Source: Xanthomonas campestris pv. campestris str. ATCC 33913 (GTDB lineage Bacteria; Pseudomonadota; Gammaproteobacteria; Xanthomonadales; Xanthomonadaceae). Taken from it: a DNA stretch of 32,000 nucleotides. Below, one piece after another: positions 22,189 through 31,521 of this stretch (position 1 is its first letter; each line of letters begins with the position of its first letter). The position numbers and the translations under genes are program-made. The stretch is from the NCBI RefSeq assembly GCF_000007145.1, contig NC_003902.1:4226497-4258496 (forward strand). The letters are read 5' to 3'. The notes below the pieces were generated by a model. That model did not search any database and was not told where the DNA came from. It saw nothing but the letters and a program-made list of their open reading frames with translations.

Positions 22189-23460
22189 CTACTGCATCGG
22201 TATAACGCGGTCGCCTCCGCCAACCGAGCTCCAGCCCGCCACGTCGTTCCAGTACCAGAAGCTGGCCGCTTCGTCGCAGTGCTTGCGCTTGGCAATGCAC
22301 ACCAGCCCGCGTGCATCGCTGCTCCAGAGCAAGCGGGGATAACGGCGCGAAACAATCAAGCCACTTGCTGCGCCATTGACGATCAACTCCACCCACGGGT
22401 CTGCAAGCGGCGCCACTGGATCGGCCAACGCCATCAAGCGCTGCGGAAGGTAGGGCGCCACGGTCAGTACCGGTCCGCCGGCCGGTGCGGGAGGAAATTC
22501 GCCCATTTGGGATTGGTGCACCTGTTCCAAATAGTACGCCGGCACCATGAGATCACCGATGTTCACCATCGGAACTGCACAGGCATGTGCGATCACGTCG
22601 TCGATCAACACGCACAGCATGGTTCCATCCTTATGCACGCGACTACCCCAGCCGTGGATCTCGGTCGCGGTGACGGCATGAAGCGCAACAAAACTTTCGC
22701 GCTGCGTGAAACGGTACAGGATGCGTGCGCGCCGGTCATAGATCAGCAGCCCCCAGAAACCGGTGGTTGGCATCGGTGAAACGCAATAGCGGCCATCTGG
22801 AGAAAACATCAGCACCGCGCCCGCTCCAAACAGCACGCTGCCATCGGGAAACAGATAATCGTATTGCAGCGGAGCACTATTGCGCACTTCGTGGCAACCG
22901 ATCATGCGTATCTGCCCACCCTCCGGCGTCAGCGGTGCCGGATCGTCAACGGGGCGTCCGGATGGCCGCCCGGGCCCTGCGATGCGCGTAAACGTTGGGC
23001 CCTTGCTTGGGCGTTCGATTGAAAGCCCAGCAAGCTTCTCCCATGCCTTTCCCAGCGCCACAAGAACCGCGAAAACGGCCACTCCCGCCAGCAGCGCGAC
23101 GGTGCGCGATGGAGTAGCCTGAGCGACGGCATAACTGACACCTATGCAGGCCCCCAATCTGTAGAGCGGCATCCACTCGACACGACCAAAGACGCGTTCT
23201 TCAGCCCACTCAAACAGCACCGTCCCGCTCAGGTACAGCCATGCCAGTGGTGGCGACAGCAAAAGCGGTAGAGCCAATGGCGCCAACACCAGAACCGCAT
23301 CAAGCAGCAGGCGCCCTAATGCACCTGCGAATGACTGATCCTTGTCGACTGCGGACTGCATGAGCAGCATTTCCGATAGCAAAACTGACGGTGAGGGTAA
23401 CCCACCTCTGACTGGCCCCGTTGTTAGTCTTGACTCGCACAGGATCCACGCGAAGAGCAT
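22189..23460 (-). CDS. hypothetical protein: N-terminal multi-TM region plus about 270-aa unassigned C-terminal domain
   Basis: ATG 23460 has AAGGA 5 nt upstream; ATG 23370 and 23361 are alternatives. Hydrophobic segments include LLLDAVLVLAPLALPLLLSPPLAWLYL, LGACIGVSYAVAQA and VALLAGVAVFAVLVALG. The C-terminal domain has beta-rich motifs (FSPDGRY, LLWSSDARGLV). GC looks lower than in the neighbours. No family recognised. Confidence 0.6.
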   Translation of the reverse strand: MLFAWILCESRLTTGPVRGGLPSPSVLLSEMLLMQSAVDKDQSFAGALGRLLLDAVLVLAPLALPLLLSPPLAWLYLSGTVLFEWAEERVFGRVEWMPLYRLGACIGVSYAVAQATPSRTVALLAGVAVFAVLVALGKAWEKLAGLSIERPSKGPTFTRIAGPGRPSGRPVDDPAPLTPEGGQIRMIGCHEVRNSAPLQYDYLFPDGSVLFGAGAVLMFSPDGRYCVSPMPTTGFWGLLIYDRRARILYRFTQRESFVALHAVTATEIHGWGSRVHKDGTMLCVLIDDVIAHACAVPMVNIGDLMVPAYYLEQVHQSQMGEFPPAPAGGPVLTVAPYLPQRLMALADPVAPLADPWVELIVNGAASGLIVSRRYPRLLWSSDARGLVCIAKRKHCDEAASFWYWNDVAGWSSVGGGDRVIPMQ

Positions 23461-23743
23461 TGTCCTTTCAGCGCTGTTGCAGGTGCACGGCAGCAGGTGC
23501 AAATGCCCACCCGTGTGTTCCGCCGAAGCGGACCGCCAACGCCACAACACGCCGGCCGCCTCGGGGCGCTCGGACACCACCCCGGGCCCCGGATTGGCGC
23601 TGCCGCCGCCAATCGGCGAAAATAGCGCCCAGCCTTGAAACTCACTGGCAACGCCCGCGTTTTCTAAGGGCTCAGCACCGTCTTGCCCACCGGCCGCCTG
23701 CCGCCACACCCACGGCTTTCAGCCGCTTCTGCCCGGATCTGCC

Positions 23744-25330
23744 TTGAATACCACTGCCCCGCCCCTGCCCGCCGACGACCTGCCGCTCACCGACCGCCTG
23801 CGCGCCGCGCTGGATGTGCTGGAGGCCATCGACGCGGACCGCAGCGTGCTCGATACGCTCTCCGAGGCCGACCGCGTGCGGCTGCATCAGGTGGTGGCCA
23901 AGGTCTACCACCCCGAGCCCAAGGCGCGCCGCCAACTGCTCAAGCAGCGCGAGCGCGAACGCCATCAGGAAAAGGTCCGCAAGGCCGAGGCCTTGCTCGA
24001 GCAGACCGGCATCCGCGCGTTGCGGCGCAAACCGGTGTTCAGCACGCCGAACTATTTCCCGCCGCACGCCGCCGGCCTGCACGATGCACACAATGGCGAA
24101 GGCGCTGCCGCTGCCGAGGCGCCACAGCAATCGCCGGAACTGCGGCACTGCTATGTGTGCAAGCAGAAGTTTACTCAGCTGCATCACTTCTACGACCAGA
24201 TGTGCCCGGCCTGCGCGGAGCTGAATTTCTTCAAGCGCACCGAAACCGCCGACCTGCGCGGGCGCGTGGCGCTGCTCACCGGCGGCCGGGTCAAGATTGG
24301 GTATCAGGCTGGCTTGAAGCTGCTGCGCGCCGGCGCCGAACTCATCGTCACCACGCGCTTCCCGCGCGACTCGGCCGCGCGTTATGCGGAAGAACCCGAC
24401 TTTGCCGAGTGGGGCCACCGCCTGCAGGTGTTCGGGCTGGATCTGCGCCACACGCCCAGCGTGGAAGCGTTCTGCAGCCAGTTGCTGGCCACGCGCACGC
24501 GGCTGGATTTCATCATCAACAACGCCTGCCAGACCGTGCGCCGCCCGCCGCAGTTCTACGCGCACATGATGGCCGGCGAGACCGCCGCGCTGCACGACCT
24601 GCCCGAGACGGTGCGCAAGCTGGTGGGCCATTACGAAGGCCTGCGTACACCCGAACTGCTGCGCGACGCCTCAGCCACTGCGCTGCCGGCCGTGCACGGA
24701 CGCGGCCTGGACGGCGCCGACGGCCTCACCCGCGCCGCCGAGCTGTCGCAGGTCGCGCTGCTGGACGACGAGCTGGTCGGCCAGGAGCACCTGTTCCCCG
24801 AAGGCCGTCTCGATCAGGATCTGCAGCAGGTCGACTTGCGCGGCCGCAACTCCTGGCGCCTGCTGCTGGCCGAGGTGCCCTCGGTGGAATTGCTGGAGAC
24901 GCAACTGGTCAATGCCATCGCGCCTTTCATCATCAATGCGCGCCTCAAGCCGCTGATGCTGCGCACGCCCGAGCGCGACAAGCACATCGTCAACGTCTCG
25001 GCGATGGAGGGCCAGTTCTACCGCAACTTCAAGACCACCCGTCACCCGCACACCAACATGGCCAAGGCCGCGTTGAACATGATGACGCGCACCTCGGCGG
25101 CCGATTATCAAAACGACGGCATCCACATGAACAGCGTCGACACCGGCTGGGTCACCGACGAAGATCCGGCCGACATCGCCGCGCTCAAGGTCCAGCAGGA
25201 ACGCTTCCATCCGCCGCTGGACATCGTCGACGGCGCCGCGCGCATCGTCGACCCGATCATCCACGGCTTCAACACCGGCGAGCATGTGTGGGGGCAGTTC
25301 TTGAAGGACTATGCGCCGACGGATTGGTGA
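23744..25330 (+). CDS. SDR-family oxidoreductase with N-terminal helical region and Cys4 zinc-ribbon
   Basis: The CxxC...CxxC element is HCYVCKQKF...QMCPACAELN. It is followed by the Rossmann motif ALLTGGRVKIGYQAG, then NNAC, NVSAMEG and TNMAKAAL. The TTG start at 23744 is uncertain because there is no Shine-Dalgarno sequence. Confidence 0.82.
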   Translation: MNTTAPPLPADDLPLTDRLRAALDVLEAIDADRSVLDTLSEADRVRLHQVVAKVYHPEPKARRQLLKQRERERHQEKVRKAEALLEQTGIRALRRKPVFSTPNYFPPHAAGLHDAHNGEGAAAAEAPQQSPELRHCYVCKQKFTQLHHFYDQMCPACAELNFFKRTETADLRGRVALLTGGRVKIGYQAGLKLLRAGAELIVTTRFPRDSAARYAEEPDFAEWGHRLQVFGLDLRHTPSVEAFCSQLLATRTRLDFIINNACQTVRRPPQFYAHMMAGETAALHDLPETVRKLVGHYEGLRTPELLRDASATALPAVHGRGLDGADGLTRAAELSQVALLDDELVGQEHLFPEGRLDQDLQQVDLRGRNSWRLLLAEVPSVELLETQLVNAIAPFIINARLKPLMLRTPERDKHIVNVSAMEGQFYRNFKTTRHPHTNMAKAALNMMTRTSAADYQNDGIHMNSVDTGWVTDEDPADIAALKVQQERFHPPLDIVDGAARIVDPIIHGFNTGEHVWGQFLKDYAPTDW

Positions 25331-25471: not shown

Positions 25472-25885
25472 TCAGGCGCCGTGCGCTGCCTTCTGAAACT
25501 CGATCGGCCCGTGATCACCTGGATACTTCTTCTTGAGCAAGATGTGTTCGGCGGGCGTGACACATCTGTCCTCAAGAGAATGCTCCACCTGCCCCTCGTC
25601 CACGAAGAACGTTTCGTGCGGTAACTGCAGAACTGATCTCTTCCCACCCTGATCGAACCTCAGCACCAGACTGTCATCGCGCTCGAAGCACAGTGTCTTC
25701 CAAGGGAAGTCGGTGAGCTTGCCCGCCTCAACCACCGCCGAATCCTTGCCTGCCAGCAGCGTCGCGACATGATCGGAGAACTGCTTCTGCGAGATCGGCG
25801 CCTCCGTCACGACGCATCCTGCAAAGCTAGCAACCACCACTGCGGCCGCTATTGAAACGTGGGGACGGAAGATAGCGAATGGCAT
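25472..25885 (-). CDS. hypothetical lipoprotein
   Basis: ATG 25885 is preceded by AGGAG 9 nt upstream. N-terminus MPFAIFRPHVSIAAAVVVASFAGC-VV is a signal peptide plus lipobox. The region is AT-richer than the backbone. No family recognised. Confidence 0.65.
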   Translation of the reverse strand: MPFAIFRPHVSIAAAVVVASFAGCVVTEAPISQKQFSDHVATLLAGKDSAVVEAGKLTDFPWKTLCFERDDSLVLRFDQGGKRSVLQLPHETFFVDEGQVEHSLEDRCVTPAEHILLKKKYPGDHGPIEFQKAAHGA

Positions 25886-25942
25886 CCGGCGCGGCTCCTT
25901 GCTGCGGCAATCGGCGTTTTTACCAGAAGTAAGCAGCGCTTG

Positions 25943-25951
25943 CCCCCCCCC
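25943..25951 (-). repeat. G9 homopolymer (C9 on + strand) upstream of lipoprotein gene
   Basis: Nine consecutive C residues counted at 25943..25951. They lie 58-66 nt upstream of ATG 25885, about 20 nt upstream of a candidate extended -10 (TGGTAAAAA on the minus strand). Confidence 0.9.
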
Positions 25952-26049
25952 TGGAGAACCCTCTGTCTTCGCTGAAGAAAGACGCATGCCCCTCCTATAG
26001 ACCTATGAAATCAGTATGCGCAAGAAGTCATTGAGATCTGCTCAAGCAA

Positions 26050-26538
26050 TTACATGAGATTCGAATAGTCGCCAATTTGATTGCATATCTCCACCGGTGG
26101 ATCGCCCAGCTGGACGACTCTTCGCTGTCGTCTTTCAGACGCGCTCTTCGGTGTCACGACGCGGTAGAGCAGATAATACGCATACTGAGTTTCCCAAAGA
26201 CCAAATGTCGAAATATCCGAAAACTGGAAACGCTCCCCTGTTGAACGCGTTGCAGTGAAAGCGCACTCAGCATAGGTCCCAACGCCACAGCGAGCATCCA
26301 GGTAGTACAAGCCACCTCGCCCTTTGAGGTCAAAATGATAAAGGCGCCCATTCTCGTCTTCGAAGACCTGTGGAACCACTTGCAGCGCGTGCGTTGCGTC
26401 GATACGTCCCCAGCGACGAGACTCGTCACAGAGCGAGCCACCGGACATGGCACCCGTTTCACTGCCAGCGGAAGCTGACAAACATCCTGTTGCTGCGAGG
26501 GACACGAGTGTCAGGCAACCAAGCTTAGTTACTTGCAC
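26050..26538 (-). CDS. hypothetical lipoprotein
   Basis: GTG 26538 is preceded by AAGGAG 5 nt upstream. N-terminus VQVTKLGCLTLVSLAATGC-LS is lipobox-like. The region is AT-richer than the backbone. No family recognised. Confidence 0.65.
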   Translation of the reverse strand: MQVTKLGCLTLVSLAATGCLSASAGSETGAMSGGSLCDESRRWGRIDATHALQVVPQVFEDENGRLYHFDLKGRGGLYYLDARCGVGTYAECAFTATRSTGERFQFSDISTFGLWETQYAYYLLYRVVTPKSASERRQRRVVQLGDPPVEICNQIGDYSNLM

Positions 26539-26866
26539 GGAGACTCCTTGCTCTTTTTTCTTAAGGATTATTGCCGTGGCTCGCAAAGGGAGCGAAAAAT
26601 TCATAGATGGCGCGCAAGGATGGATTACTCGTTTGTACCAGGCTGAGTGAGACGCTAACTGCGCCCAAGACGGTGGTCAATGGCGCCTTTCATTTACGGA
26701 CGACTGCCTGTGCATTGCGTAGGGCCGGACGAAAATCTATGCGCAAAGAACCGCAGCGCTTCTATCGCCGGCCATAGGCGCCCAGACGGTACGTAACTGC
26801 AGTGCCTGCAGACACAGAAACGCTGGCCGGCGCGTGATGGGCACCGAACCAGCAACACTGCTTTGC

Positions 26867-28436: not shown

Positions 28437-28826
28437 TCACTGACAGCGACGATACTGGCTAACCGATTTGCCATCAGAGATCACCAGATAGCCGCCTTTC
28501 AGAATGTAAAGGTCATCAGTTCTGATATCTGGCGCGATATCCGACTTAGCGGAAACCAGCCAAGCATGTGGATCAGAAGAAACACGCCTGATCGATATGG
28601 GCGTCTGCTGGTGCTCGTGGCCACGCAACCAGGTCTTCTCGATATGTATCGGCGTATCGGAGTCAGGATTCATGGGTAGCTTGCAAGCGTGAGGGCCTAG
28701 GTCCCATATGCCCTGAAGCTCTTGTGGATACGCAACAGACTGGCGCACCTTAGTAGCCGACGCGGCGCCGATGCCAAGCAGCAACGGTAGGGCTAAAATA
28801 AACCCCGTGATCATCCGCATACTCAC
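28437..28826 (-). CDS. small exported hypothetical protein (possible second immunity/accessory protein)
   Basis: Signal peptide MSMRMITGFILALPLLLGIGAASA-TK. GGAG lies 9 nt upstream of ATG 28826. It is 73 nt downstream of the effector gene on the same strand. AT-rich. Confidence 0.6.
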   Translation of the reverse strand: MSMRMITGFILALPLLLGIGAASATKVRQSVAYPQELQGIWDLGPHACKLPMNPDSDTPIHIEKTWLRGHEHQQTPISIRRVSSDPHAWLVSAKSDIAPDIRTDDLYILKGGYLVISDGKSVSQYRRCQ

Positions 28827-28899
28827 TTTCTACTCCGTCGATGTGTTCACCACGCCAGGCTTAGTACGGCGACTGGCTCTGCCTATTTCTTGAAAAATA

Positions 28900-30057
28900 T
28901 CAGCGCGTCATCGACGGACCGGCCTGTGAGACGGCTTGCTGCGACTGTTCTAATGCCTGCTGCTGCTCGCGCGCCTGGGCCTGAGTCTGGTTGAGTGCCT
29001 GCAGGCGATCGAACGACTGGATCTCAGGTGTCTGCACGGCTTCTATCGTTGGCATATGTGCCCGCTGGTGTGCCGGGTCATTGAGCGCGCCTTGTACAAC
29101 GAAGACCTTCTCGCCGCCAGCTAGCTGAGGCGTGGGGTTGTTGAGTGCAACATGGTCCACCCGCGACAGCCCTTCCTCTTTGGCCAACGCAAGCAAGCTG
29201 GCGGTCATGCGCTGGCTGGCCCCGTCCCACTCTTTGCCGTGTTGGGCGTCGAGCTGCATCACGCCACCTCTGATCTGCTGGTACAGCGCGTGGTCCGCGT
29301 GGCCTGGCTGTGAGGGCAACAACGTGGTCTTCGGTGACACCGAGGGTGATTCAGGACCAAGTCCACCCTGCTTCACATCAGAAGTACTGATGTCGCCAAC
29401 GCCTCCAGGTTCCGGTCGACCCTGTTTGCGTTGCAGCGGTGCAATATATTTATCGTAGTAATCTCCGTAATATTGTTCATATGTTTTACTTGGACCAACC
29501 GAAGGTTTTTCCGTCTTGAAGACCTGGGCAATCTGGTTCAATGCAGCATCGCGCGTGATGCGACCTGCCATTTGCTGATCTGCAATTGCCTGGTACTGCT
29601 GTGGCCTTGTGCCGCTTCCAGAGATACCGATATCCGGTCCGTTATTATTTATAATCTCACGCCGAATTAGTGCGTTGCTAAGCGTTGCTGCAGCTTCGCC
29701 ACGGAGCATGCTCGTGACGTACCCATTCTTGGAGGACTGATCGGATTGCTCAGAAAATCGATGATGTCCAATTTCATGCGATAGCGACCGAGCGATGCGC
29801 GCACCGTTTCCAACTGCATTTTCGTCAATAACTACTTGCGTGCGAGGAACGAGATAGGTGCCGGCACCGGCAGTCCCCCATACCACCCCAATGTTGTCCC
29901 GATTCAGCTGCGCGAGGCCTGCCTGAAGTGTTGGAGACCTCTGCAAGAAAGGCGTGACCGAAGGATCCGATAGCGGAGAGGACGGCTTCACTGCAGCGGC
30001 TCCTGACACCGATTGCTGCGGCTGCGGATACTTCGACTCGTCGATATTTTCCATCAT
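28900..30057 (-). CDS. putative X-T4SS effector (X-Tfe): N-terminal HExxH gluzincin-like domain plus C-terminal XVIPCD
   Basis: GGAG lies 3 nt before ATG 30057 and 6 nt before ATG 30054. HEIGH is encoded at 29764..29778, with GEAAA 23 residues after the second His. The C-terminal ~135 aa (about 28903..29316) carry GHADHALYQQIRGG, SLLALAKEEGLSRVDHVAL, VFVVQGALNDPAH and the Gln-rich tail QTQAQAREQQQALEQSQQ. Confidence 0.82.
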   Translation of the reverse strand: MMENIDESKYPQPQQSVSGAAAVKPSSPLSDPSVTPFLQRSPTLQAGLAQLNRDNIGVVWGTAGAGTYLVPRTQVVIDENAVGNGARIARSLSHEIGHHRFSEQSDQSSKNGYVTSMLRGEAAATLSNALIRREIINNNGPDIGISGSGTRPQQYQAIADQQMAGRITRDAALNQIAQVFKTEKPSVGPSKTYEQYYGDYYDKYIAPLQRKQGRPEPGGVGDISTSDVKQGGLGPESPSVSPKTTLLPSQPGHADHALYQQIRGGVMQLDAQHGKEWDGASQRMTASLLALAKEEGLSRVDHVALNNPTPQLAGGEKVFVVQGALNDPAHQRAHMPTIEAVQTPEIQSFDRLQALNQTQAQAREQQQALEQSQQAVSQAGPSMTR

Positions 30058-30088
30058 GCACTCCGTTGCGGGAACCCAACTCAGCAAC

Positions 30089-30688
30089 TTATTTCTTGCT
30101 GATTGTGATGTAGCTTAGACCAGACTGATCTTGGTTCAATCCAAAGATGACAGTTGCCGTTTCTCTCTGCATCGACCAGTAAGCGCTCGAGCCGGCCGCG
30201 TCTGGGCGCGGTGGGTAGAGGGAAGCATCTGGCGAGGGCATACCCTCGAACTTCGGCCCAGGCGGCGAAAAGTCAAGCACAAGAGTCGCATGCGAAGGGG
30301 CATGCTGATTACTGCGAAGCTCAATGCGCTTCAAGGCTGCACCAGCCAGCACACCACTTACACCGGCCCGTATCACCATCACATCTTGCGATTCACCTGG
30401 GCCCAGTTGCGTTTGAAGCTGAGCGTTAAGTGCTGCGATATCGTGGAAGTCAGTTGCGATCAAACGATCCACATCTTGCTTGAGGCGTTCCGTCACGTCT
30501 TTGCTCCTGGTTTCAATGGAGGACTTTGCAGCCGCTACGGCTGGCTGATCGCGTGGAGTGCTGAGGGCACATCCCGCATGAAAAGTGCATAGTGTCAGCA
30601 GCGCAACTGGTAACAACGCTGCCCAAGGGAGGGCATTACGTCCTTGGTTAACTTGCCGGCCATGGGATTTCCCAAGGTGAAGGGCCAT
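30089..30688 (-). CDS. exported lipoprotein-like protein, candidate cognate immunity protein (X-Tfi)
   Basis: N-terminus with ALPWAALLPVALLTLCTFHAGC-AL, a signal peptide with an A-G-C lipobox but an atypical His at -3. It lies immediately upstream of the effector (31-nt gap, same strand). A candidate extended -10 (TGGTAAATT on the minus strand, + coordinates about 30720..30728) lies upstream. No family recognised. Confidence 0.68.
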   Translation of the reverse strand: MALHLGKSHGRQVNQGRNALPWAALLPVALLTLCTFHAGCALSTPRDQPAVAAAKSSIETRSKDVTERLKQDVDRLIATDFHDIAALNAQLQTQLGPGESQDVMVIRAGVSGVLAGAALKRIELRSNQHAPSHATLVLDFSPPGPKFEGMPSPDASLYPPRPDAAGSSAYWSMQRETATVIFGLNQDQSGLSYITISKK

Positions 30689-30853: not shown

Positions 30854-31252
30854 TCATTTTGCAGGCACTCCCACCGGCGGCAACACCTCCATCAACAACC
30901 GCCCCACGCTGGCGGTGATGCGTAGCTTGGTGCCGATGGCAAAGCCCAGTTGCTGCAGCCATAGGCCGCTGAGGCGGACGTGGGGCACGTGCTGGTCGCC
31001 GGCGTGGTCGTGGGCGCCGGGGTAGAGGGTGTAGCTGACGGTGCATTGGCGCGGGCGGCGGGCGCGGCGGGGTGCATGCAAACGGCCGGGGCCTTGCGGC
31101 GTTGTGTCCGGCTCGGGCGGCAGCATCGGTGGCAGTTGGGTGCGATCGGGTTCGACGATGACCCACTGCACCCGCTTGGGTGGCGCGGGGCGCGCACGTT
31201 GACGGGTGGGCCGTGCGGTGGCGGACGCGTTGGGTGGGCGGCGGCGCGTCAT
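30854..31252 (-). CDS. symE: SymE-family (AbrB/SpoVT-fold) toxin-like protein with Arg/Pro-rich N-terminal extension
   Basis: The C-terminal half CTVSYTLYPG...VPHVRLSGLWLQQLGFAIGTKLRITASVGRLLMEV is collinear with E. coli SymE (LTVSYA...[30 protein letters not shown]). ATG 31252 overlaps the upstream stop (ATGA). Confidence 0.78.
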   Translation of the reverse strand: MTRRRPPNASATARPTRQRARPAPPKRVQWVIVEPDRTQLPPMLPPEPDTTPQGPGRLHAPRRARRPRQCTVSYTLYPGAHDHAGDQHVPHVRLSGLWLQQLGFAIGTKLRITASVGRLLMEVLPPVGVPAK

Positions 31253-31521
31253 GGCGCCCCCGGGTGGCGAGTGTTGGTGATAGGTGCAGCAACGCACTGC
31301 TGCAAGGCCACGTCGATGCGGGCGGACAGGCTGCGCAAGGCCTGCGACAACACGCCGGGTTGACTGAGCAGCTGCTGCGCGGGATCGTCGCTGGCCTGCT
31401 CAATAGCTGCGCGTGCAGCCAGCCGGCGCAGCACCTCGCCTACATCCCACAGCAGGCCGTGAGCGGAGGCTGGCAACAGATAACCCGGCACCGCTGCCGG
31501 CATGGATGGTGCGGTAGGCAT
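31249..31521 (-). CDS. small hypothetical protein translationally coupled to the SymE-like gene (antitoxin candidate)
   Basis: ATG 31521 is preceded by AGGAGG 8 nt upstream. The 90-aa product looks helical (LLWDVGEVLRRLAARAAIEQA...). Its stop overlaps the symE-like start. No family recognised. Confidence 0.5.
   Translation of the reverse strand: MPTAPSMPAAVPGYLLPASAHGLLWDVGEVLRRLAARAAIEQASDDPAQQLLSQPGVLSQALRSLSARIDVALQQCVAAPITNTRHPGAP

Follow-up and report, generated by a model that had tools for sequence, protein, structure and literature searches.

The bacteria-killing type IV secretion system (T4SS) of the Xanthomonadales, known as the X-T4SS, is served by effectors (X-Tfes) and their immunity proteins (X-Tfis). 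The paradigm pair is X-Tfe(XAC2609)/X-Tfi(XAC2610) of Xanthomonas citri, in which the effector carries the conserved domain of Xanthomonas VirD4-interacting proteins (XVIPCD) and an upstream gene encodes a lipoprotein immunity protein. A second pair, Smlt0332/Smlt0333 of Stenotrophomonas maltophilia K279a, was described by Bayer-Santos et al. 2019 as an effector of unknown function and its immunity protein. In Sgro et al. 2019 (PMC6536674), XCC3567, XC_3909 and xcc-b100_0624 appear in a list of X-Tfes with homology to the N-terminal domain of Smlt0332, a domain which these authors also noted at the C-terminus of VgrG and which had no Pfam or CDD annotation. Here we analysed a 32,000-nucleotide stretch of X. 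campestris pv. campestris (Xcc) ATCC 33913 (NC_003902.1, positions 4,226,497 to 4,258,496; hereafter the window, in whose numbering all coordinates are given), which holds an effector gene at 28900..30057 (-) and, directly upstream of it, a small lipoprotein-like gene at 30089..30688 (-). The window pair has the XVIPCD and the upstream lipoprotein gene in common with the X. citri paradigm; however, XAC2609 has as its toxic part a GH19 peptidoglycan hydrolase, which is accompanied by a peptidoglycan-binding domain and is unrelated to the N-terminal domain found here. The pair itself is not new, having been catalogued in silico as an X-Tfe in 2019 (Sgro et al., PMC6536674).

Toxins built around a HExxH motif are also known from type VI secretion systems (T6SS), where VgrG2b C-ter/PA0261 of Pseudomonas aeruginosa and Tpe1/Tpi1 of A. 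baylyi form metallopeptidase toxin/immunity pairs (PMC6899460). VgrG2b C-ter is lethal only in the periplasm, loses its toxicity when the Glu of the motif is mutated, is inactivated by the substitution E936A, and is neutralised on being bound by an immunity protein exposed to the periplasm, in some species a lipoprotein (PMC6899460). As a HExxH toxin with an exported immunity protein, VgrG2b C-ter/PA0261 appears by analogy to be the closest functional counterpart of the window pair, unlike which it is delivered by the T6SS and has its immunity gene downstream. The first-pass annotation of this DNA, made by a model from the letters alone, had held that a metallopeptidase-type X-Tfe with a periplasmic inhibitor had yet to be dissected experimentally. 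This was overstated, as the VgrG2b C-ter/PA0261 analogue has been dissected (PMC6899460) and XCC3567 had already been listed (PMC6536674). Furthermore, in a 2023 genomics paper the C-terminal extension of VgrG2 (861 aa) from Enterobacter bugandensis was termed, on in silico grounds, a novel gluzincin domain (PMC10763514), and this domain probably belongs to the same family as the toxin domain described below.

We read the window locus as an X-Tfe/X-Tfi pair in which a periplasmic zinc metallopeptidase is blocked by a lipoprotein, and give this reading as a whole a probability of roughly 0.7. We consider it very probable that the locus forms a stand-alone pair of X-Tfe and X-Tfi belonging to the X-T4SS of the Xanthomonadales, and, judging by sequence, likely that the N-terminal domain is an active periplasmic metallopeptidase. 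Under this reading VirD4 would recognise the XVIPCD and the X-T4SS would inject the effector into neighbouring Gram-negative cells, where the N-terminal domain is proposed to work in the periplasm as a zinc metallopeptidase that cleaves an envelope substrate, with H93, H97 and E120 as predicted zinc ligands and E94 as the putative general base. In the producer and its kin, an outer-membrane-anchored X-Tfi would bind and block the toxin, possibly through its YPPRPDA..S.AYW segment, while a signal-less X-Tfi made from an internal start may guard the cytoplasm before export. For an effector family which the X-T4SS field still lists as of 'unknown function' this is a sharper hypothesis: it names the residues H93, E94, H97 and E120, and it names as partner the upstream lipoprotein, not the downstream gene. 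What the present analysis adds is the catalytic-residue hypothesis, a link to Pfam DUF6782, an account of how large the toxin family is and which architectures it takes, evidence for action in the periplasm and a conserved internal start in the X-Tfi gene; the overall view of how the X-T4SS or the T6SS works stays as it was.

The effector gene encodes 385 amino acids (aa) from the ATG at 30057. Public databases begin the protein one methionine later, at the ATG at 30054 (384 aa), and residue numbers here refer to this 384-aa form unless stated. All three open reading frames (ORFs) of the locus, and the gaps of 31 and 73 nt between them, are as the first-pass annotation gave them. Its motif positions also stand; its residue numbers H104/E105 and 258-395 fit a 395-aa ORF starting at a TTG (28900..30087) and not the 385-aa ORF. 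The identical 384-aa protein is present on 413 public contigs, labelled 'XVIPCD domain-containing protein [X. campestris pv. campestris]', and AAM42837.1, i.e., XCC3567, falls in its 90% cluster; by sequence, the effector is an ortholog of XCC3567 and a member of the Smlt0332 family. Smlt0332/Smlt0333 have the same family and architecture as the window pair, including the C-terminal XVIPCD, with essentially no structural difference between Smlt0332 and the window effector. The Stenotrophomonas homologs have N-terminal domains 60-63% identical to that of the window and a 199-aa lipoprotein gene ~30 nt upstream, and one of them, P0021, we infer from the paper's description to be Smlt0332 itself. 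In the literature the Smlt0332 N-terminal domain is said to have 'no similarity with annotated domains', with no mention of a HExxH...E signature.

The effector is bipartite, with an N-terminal domain of ~190 aa and a C-terminal XVIPCD, the VirD4-interacting secretion domain. The XVIPCD (28996..29310 (-), residues 250-354 of the 385-aa form) was recognised by the Pfam family X-Tfes_XVIPCD (PF20410) with E=1e-32 and 113 bits, far beyond the cut-off of 24.9, over nearly the entire profile (positions 2-101 of 101). This bears out the first-pass assignment, whose five C-terminal motifs were all found, in the order claimed. The NCBIfam model for the Smlt3024 effector also matches, in the C-terminal part only. 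An AlphaFold2 model of the effector, built on 33 homologs and with a mean predicted local distance difference test score (pLDDT) of 80, was compared by Foldseek with solved structures and matched both the XVIPCD of X-Tfe(XAC2609) (7mu9; E=4e-4, template modelling score 0.64) and the S. maltophilia T4SS effector TfcB (7r6s; E=1e-7). The C-terminal XVIPCD that marks an X-Tfe was therefore found by Pfam and Foldseek alike. Behind its core lies a Gln-rich C-terminal tail (28903..28995 (-)), which in the model completes a long helix and then becomes disordered. No vir gene family was detected among the window ORFs scanned against Pfam, in line with the earlier remark that the window holds no virB or virD4 genes.

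The N-terminal toxin domain (29419..29985 (-), residues 24-212) is zincin-like and carries a HExxH...E signature. Its HEIGH motif (29764..29778 (-)) comprises H93, E94 and H97, the predicted first two zinc ligands and catalytic base, and E120 of GEAAATL (29695..29697 (-)), 23 residues past H97, is the predicted third ligand. The arrangement is as the first-pass annotation had read it, and it proved to be strongly conserved. Across 33 full-length homologs (alignment A1) the invariant residues are H93, E94, G96, H97, E120, E133, Y154, Y192 and Y196, and in a broader set of 154 domains, with a median identity of 33% to the window domain, H93, E94, H97, E120, A123 and Y192 are 98-99% conserved (E120 99%). 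HExxH is kept in 150 of 153 homologous domain instances, and the few near-invariant polar residues of the family include the HExxH and the Glu 23 residues on, in the next helix. In the AlphaFold2 model, ten-residue blocks across residues 21-210 have a mean pLDDT of 74-97, mostly >88. Along the chain come two helices, three short strands, a helix at 84-99 bearing HEIGH and a helix at 109-136 bearing E120, an order which, in the model, fits that expected of a gluzincin. Both hallmarks of a gluzincin were thus found, i.e., HExxH on a helix and a Glu on the helix that follows, which is expected some 18 or more residues after the motif and here lies 23 residues after it. On sequence grounds, a gluzincin-like metallopeptidase is well supported.

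Several observations weigh against this reading. The effector itself matches no peptidase family in Pfam or NCBIfam, and Foldseek found no significant neighbour of the N-terminal domain in PDB or BFVD, the matches of the full model being to the XVIPCD only. A literature search found no enzymatic, toxicity or secretion data on any member of the family; likewise, in literature on DUF6782, the locus tags, and X-Tfes with zinc or HExxH, we found no experimental work on the toxin family. The product of smlt0332 was negative with VirD4 in two-hybrid assays in both vector configurations (2024 study, PMC11253643), and Xcc ATCC 33913 and 8004 carry the X-T4SS locus in fragmented form (PMC6536674).

The last two points, together with an apparent orphan immunity gene in the same region (see below), speak for the alternative that the pair is a relic no longer used by the X-T4SS, with a toxin that is inactive or leaves by another export route. 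We give this little credence. The ORF is intact and its sequence is identical on the 413 contigs, the XVIPCD scores far over threshold, and the catalytic residues and the immunity partner have been kept across two genera; the authors of the two-hybrid study themselves warn of false negatives (PMC11253643). X-T4SS loci do occur in Xcc strains and the locus is intact in B100 (PMC6536674). A functional pair stays the preferred explanation.

The peptidase assignment can be followed further through the relatives of the effector. The Pfam family DUF6782 (PF20573, 'putative metallopeptidase family') is matched by 13 of the 55 relatives scanned, at best with 27.1 bits, and these matches span profile positions 14-213 of 241 and run across the whole domain. 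Only one relative, P0141, attains the gathering cut-off of 27 bits; P0141 and the window domain share 37% identity (E=5e-32). One relative matches Pfam PF14891 Peptidase_M91 (NleD/HopH1-type effectors) around the HExxH. The effector itself matched neither DUF6782 nor Peptidase_M91 at E<=1 in Pfam and, with 13 of 55 relatives matching, we therefore regard DUF6782 as a related family and make no claim of curated membership. The tie to DUF6782 and Peptidase_M91 is weak and runs through relatives; the first-pass annotation had assigned the domain to no named peptidase family. To our knowledge, neither DUF6782 nor Peptidase_M91 has a characterised member active in the bacterial periplasm.

In comparisons with solved structures, the profile searches give a weak hint in the same direction. 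The best zincin-type Foldseek matches of the N-terminal domain, all non-significant, were an IrrE-like protein (E=0.035), M48 (E=0.23) and LTA4H (E=0.5). When the family profiles A3 and A8 were searched against PDB sequences, zinc metalloproteases made up 5 of 6 and 7 of 8 weak matches, respectively, which at E=0.04-2 are again non-significant and whose alignments cover a strand and the HExxH helix. Three more specific assignments were dropped. A lethal-factor-like (M34) toxin, to which the first-pass annotation had loosely likened the layout, found no counterpart, since no similarity to M34 or lethal factor appeared in Pfam, PDB profile searches or Foldseek. A metzincin does not fit, as HEIGHHRFSEQ has Phe and Gln where HExxHxxGxxH needs Gly and a third His. 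As for the Tpe/Tpi family, 6H56, the solved structure of VgrG2b C-ter, was neither in the PDB profile matches (E<=10) nor among the 50 Foldseek matches listed, so that no homology to the window domain is detectable. As the N-terminal domain is without a solved structural relative, a structure would be informative.

The toxin domain is widespread, an exhaustive profile search returning 1177 cluster representatives at E<=1e-3. In Pantoea, Pseudomonas-group species and Rhizobacter it forms the C-terminus of a VgrG of ~860-930 aa, it is also VgrG-fused in Enterobacter, where the VgrG ORF extends past the end of the locus, and it is found on T6SS spikes of Ralstonia too. Other carriers are PAAR, PAAR-like, Rhs, DUF4280 and TraG_N. 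The N-terminal domain of the effector is taken to be a toxin on the ground that VgrG, PAAR, PAAR-like and Rhs proteins serve as carriers of the same domain. The T6SS spike-borne copies are homologous to the window domain at 35-40% identity and have the HExxH...E and GPDIGI motifs in common with it. However, they carry their delivery module (VgrG/PAAR) N-terminally, whereas the effector carries its XVIPCD C-terminally, and their presumed immunity gene, encoding a small exported product, lies downstream, whereas the X-Tfi gene lies upstream. In the T6SS loci a small gene directly follows the toxin, and every product has a signal peptide, a lipobox or an N-terminal transmembrane segment. As all of these products are of an export type, the proteins presumed to give immunity throughout the family would face the periplasm, and a periplasmic site of action is proposed for the toxin on this ground. 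Since T6SS spikes, Rhs and PAAR proteins bear the same domain, the identity of its substrate would explain a toxin of many bacteria.

If the toxin acts in the periplasm, its substrate could also be the cell wall itself, the enzyme then being a zinc-dependent peptidoglycan endopeptidase or amidase acting on stem peptides or cross-links. Many X-Tfes are peptidoglycan hydrolases, a review of the X-T4SS relates X-Tfe HExxH motifs to peptidoglycan amidase folds (PMC6536674), and an exported immunity protein would be compatible with such an activity. Yet peptidoglycan-binding, LysM and SPOR domains were found in 0 of 55 family members scanned, similarity to M15, M23 or LAS enzymes was absent from Pfam, PDB profiles and Foldseek, and the analogue VgrG2b C-ter showed no peptidoglycan hydrolase activity (PMC6899460). 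We therefore consider a cell-wall enzyme rather unlikely and retain a metallopeptidase with another envelope substrate as the preferred reading.

A number of family members depart from the simple architectures. Among P0133, P0140 and P0142 (4480-4910 aa), P0258 and P0180 are giant proteins with two or three HExxH toxin domains in tandem, three copies being seen in proteins of 4500-4900 aa, and P0133 additionally matches DUF4781 and Peptidase_M91. In other members the fusion partner is TraG_N, known from conjugation, or the domain of the type III secretion system translocator HrpK1. At the start of 6 of 150 representatives (P0105, P0106, P0146, P0175, P0224 and P0229) there is a Flp/Tad-pilin-like leader, consisting of G/xxxxEY and a hydrophobic helix, and one of the six also has a weak DUF4244 match. 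In the loci of P0105 and P0106 (L040 and L041), both on short contigs, a small downstream gene is present and no tad genes were seen. These leader sequences suggest that the toxin domain is also joined to an export or anchoring signal of the Tad/Flp type.

The immunity candidate is the 199-aa lipoprotein-like protein encoded at 30089..30688 (-), 31 nt from the effector gene. A tblastn synteny test was made on 39 fetched loci, of which 27 were from Xanthomonas or Stenotrophomonas. In all 27 the gene is on the effector's strand and directly upstream of it, at identities down to ~33%, and for this reason it is regarded as the X-Tfi candidate. An X-Tfe is expected to have such a co-oriented small upstream gene, whose product is usually a lipoprotein if the toxin is active in the periplasm; the immunity role is proposed from sequence, and both the position and the lipoprotein type are classical for X-Tfis (PMC6536674). 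The N-terminus has positive charge, a hydrophobic stretch and an invariant Cys40, the lipobox being canonical (L-[AST]-A-C) in Stenotrophomonas homologs and (L/F)-H-A-G-C in those of Xanthomonas. The first-pass annotation had placed an X-Tfi at this position, and the synteny and the invariant lipobox Cys strengthen that proposal. In the AlphaFold2 model residues 1-59 are disordered (pLDDT <50), ten-residue blocks from 61 have a mean pLDDT of 81-97, and the folded part, residues 60-199, is alpha/beta with two helices and a beta-sheet. The YPPRPDA..S.AYW segment is nearly invariant. Foldseek against PDB returned nothing under E=0.07, and Pfam and NCBIfam gave no family for the X-Tfi, for the 129-aa protein encoded downstream of the effector or for the T6SS-linked immunity candidates.

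We also compared the X-Tfi with the T6SS-linked immunity proteins, and homology between them was unsupported: hhalign gave E=0.3-0.5, and a score as high came from 137 of 200 column-shuffled controls. A colinear alignment of YPPRPDA with YPRGRS, together with the C-terminal strands, is eye-catching and likewise unsupported, the best HMMER score being 5.3 bits.

Within the X-Tfi gene there is a candidate internal start (30491..30505 (-)), comprising AGGAG, a 7-nt spacer and a GTG at Val66, which would yield a signal-less form of 134 aa. A Shine-Dalgarno-like element and a start codon occupy this position in 24 of 24 loci, with GTG in Xanthomonas, and GGGAG and ATG in Stenotrophomonas. The Val66 start coincides with the beginning of the folded domain, and a 134/135-aa form is called in many public annotations. 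It is thus possible, from the nucleotide pattern, that this is a second X-Tfi start, and X-Tfis have been proposed generally to exist as a lipoprotein and a cytosolic form (Sgro et al. 2019, PMC6536674).

The same features speak for an alternative with a toxin whose site of action is the cytoplasm of the target cell, or both compartments; the signal-less X-Tfi would then be the relevant antidote and the lipoprotein secondary. Besides the internal start kept just where the folded domain begins and the published idea of a dual-form X-Tfi, this alternative can draw on the family members held by Actinobacteria (Table 3, PMC6536674). However, neither the signal peptide nor the lipobox Cys varies within the X-Tfi family, every T6SS-linked immunity candidate has an export signal, and protein-coding constraint could account for the conserved nucleotides of the internal start. 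A cytoplasmic site of action is improbable in our view, and action in the periplasm is preferred.

The gene on the other side of the effector (28437..28826 (-), GTG start, 73 nt past the effector) encodes an exported protein of 129 aa with an AxA-type signal peptide and two Cys. The first-pass annotation had counted this second exported flank as part of the module, and it could in principle be the cognate or a second immunity protein: it lies on the same strand, it has a signal peptide, and a promoter and terminator scan, uninformative overall, placed no terminator-like site between it and the effector gene. A tRNA scan of the region was likewise uninformative. Its occurrence speaks against this, as it adjoins the effector in only 2 of 27 loci (L008 and L012, from X. 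codiaei and X. pisi), against 27 of 27 for the upstream gene, and other, unrelated genes lie downstream of the effector in Stenotrophomonas and X. citri. Its sequence has no exact match in the protein collection. The 129-aa protein is a neighbour and not a conserved partner, and an immunity role for it is very improbable. Ranked by likelihood, the alternatives to a periplasmic metallopeptidase blocked by the upstream lipoprotein are a peptidoglycan peptidase, a cytoplasmic site, a relic and, last, the downstream gene as immunity gene.

A bolder extension of the preferred reading can be put forward tentatively, although we regard it as doubtful. The N-terminal domain would be the founder of a family of zinc peptidases, structurally distinct and hitherto unclassified, that cut a conserved envelope protein and so kill bacteria from the periplasm. 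At least four delivery routes would serve it, namely the X-T4SS via the XVIPCD, the T6SS via VgrG/PAAR, Rhs proteins, and perhaps Flp/Tad-type leaders and TraG-like proteins. Each route would have immunity proteins unrelated to those of the others, with a two-form X-Tfi in the X-T4SS version.

The surroundings of the pair are low in G+C, which is 55-57% in four of the five 1-kb windows from 26 to 31 kb and typically 61-71% elsewhere in the window. Four small exported proteins are encoded within 5 kb of this mostly low-GC DNA, at 25472..25987, 26050..26604, 28437..28826 and 30089..30688. The second of these is the 184-aa lipoprotein-like protein XCC3564 (AAM42834.1; 26050..26604 (-)). It shares 57% identity with the product of a 178-aa gene from an X. 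citri locus, where that gene has directly downstream of it an X-Tfe resembling XAC1918, with lysozyme, RTX repeats and XVIPCD. The body of an XAC1918-like effector was not found in the window, its sole match being XVIPCD cross-similarity with the effector at 28993..29286, and XCC3564 looks, by sequence, like an orphan X-Tfi immunity gene. Directly downstream of XCC3564, a 171-aa protein of no family (25472..25987 (-)) has a lipobox-like FAGC past a hydrophobic stretch.

Just upstream of the X-Tfi gene is a SymE-toxin-like gene of the AbrB fold (30854..31297 (-); Pfam PF08845, E=5e-15). X. citri shares the order SymE, X-Tfi, X-Tfe, with ~80% nucleotide identity over 2.8 kb, and has a second SymE fragment after the effector. 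Further away, a putative gene at 22189..23709 (-), with an ORF of 506 aa, has hydrophobic segments and no Pfam match, and is flanked by a glutathione S-transferase-like gene and by a gene that resembles, by eye, a short-chain dehydrogenase (23744..25330 (+)).

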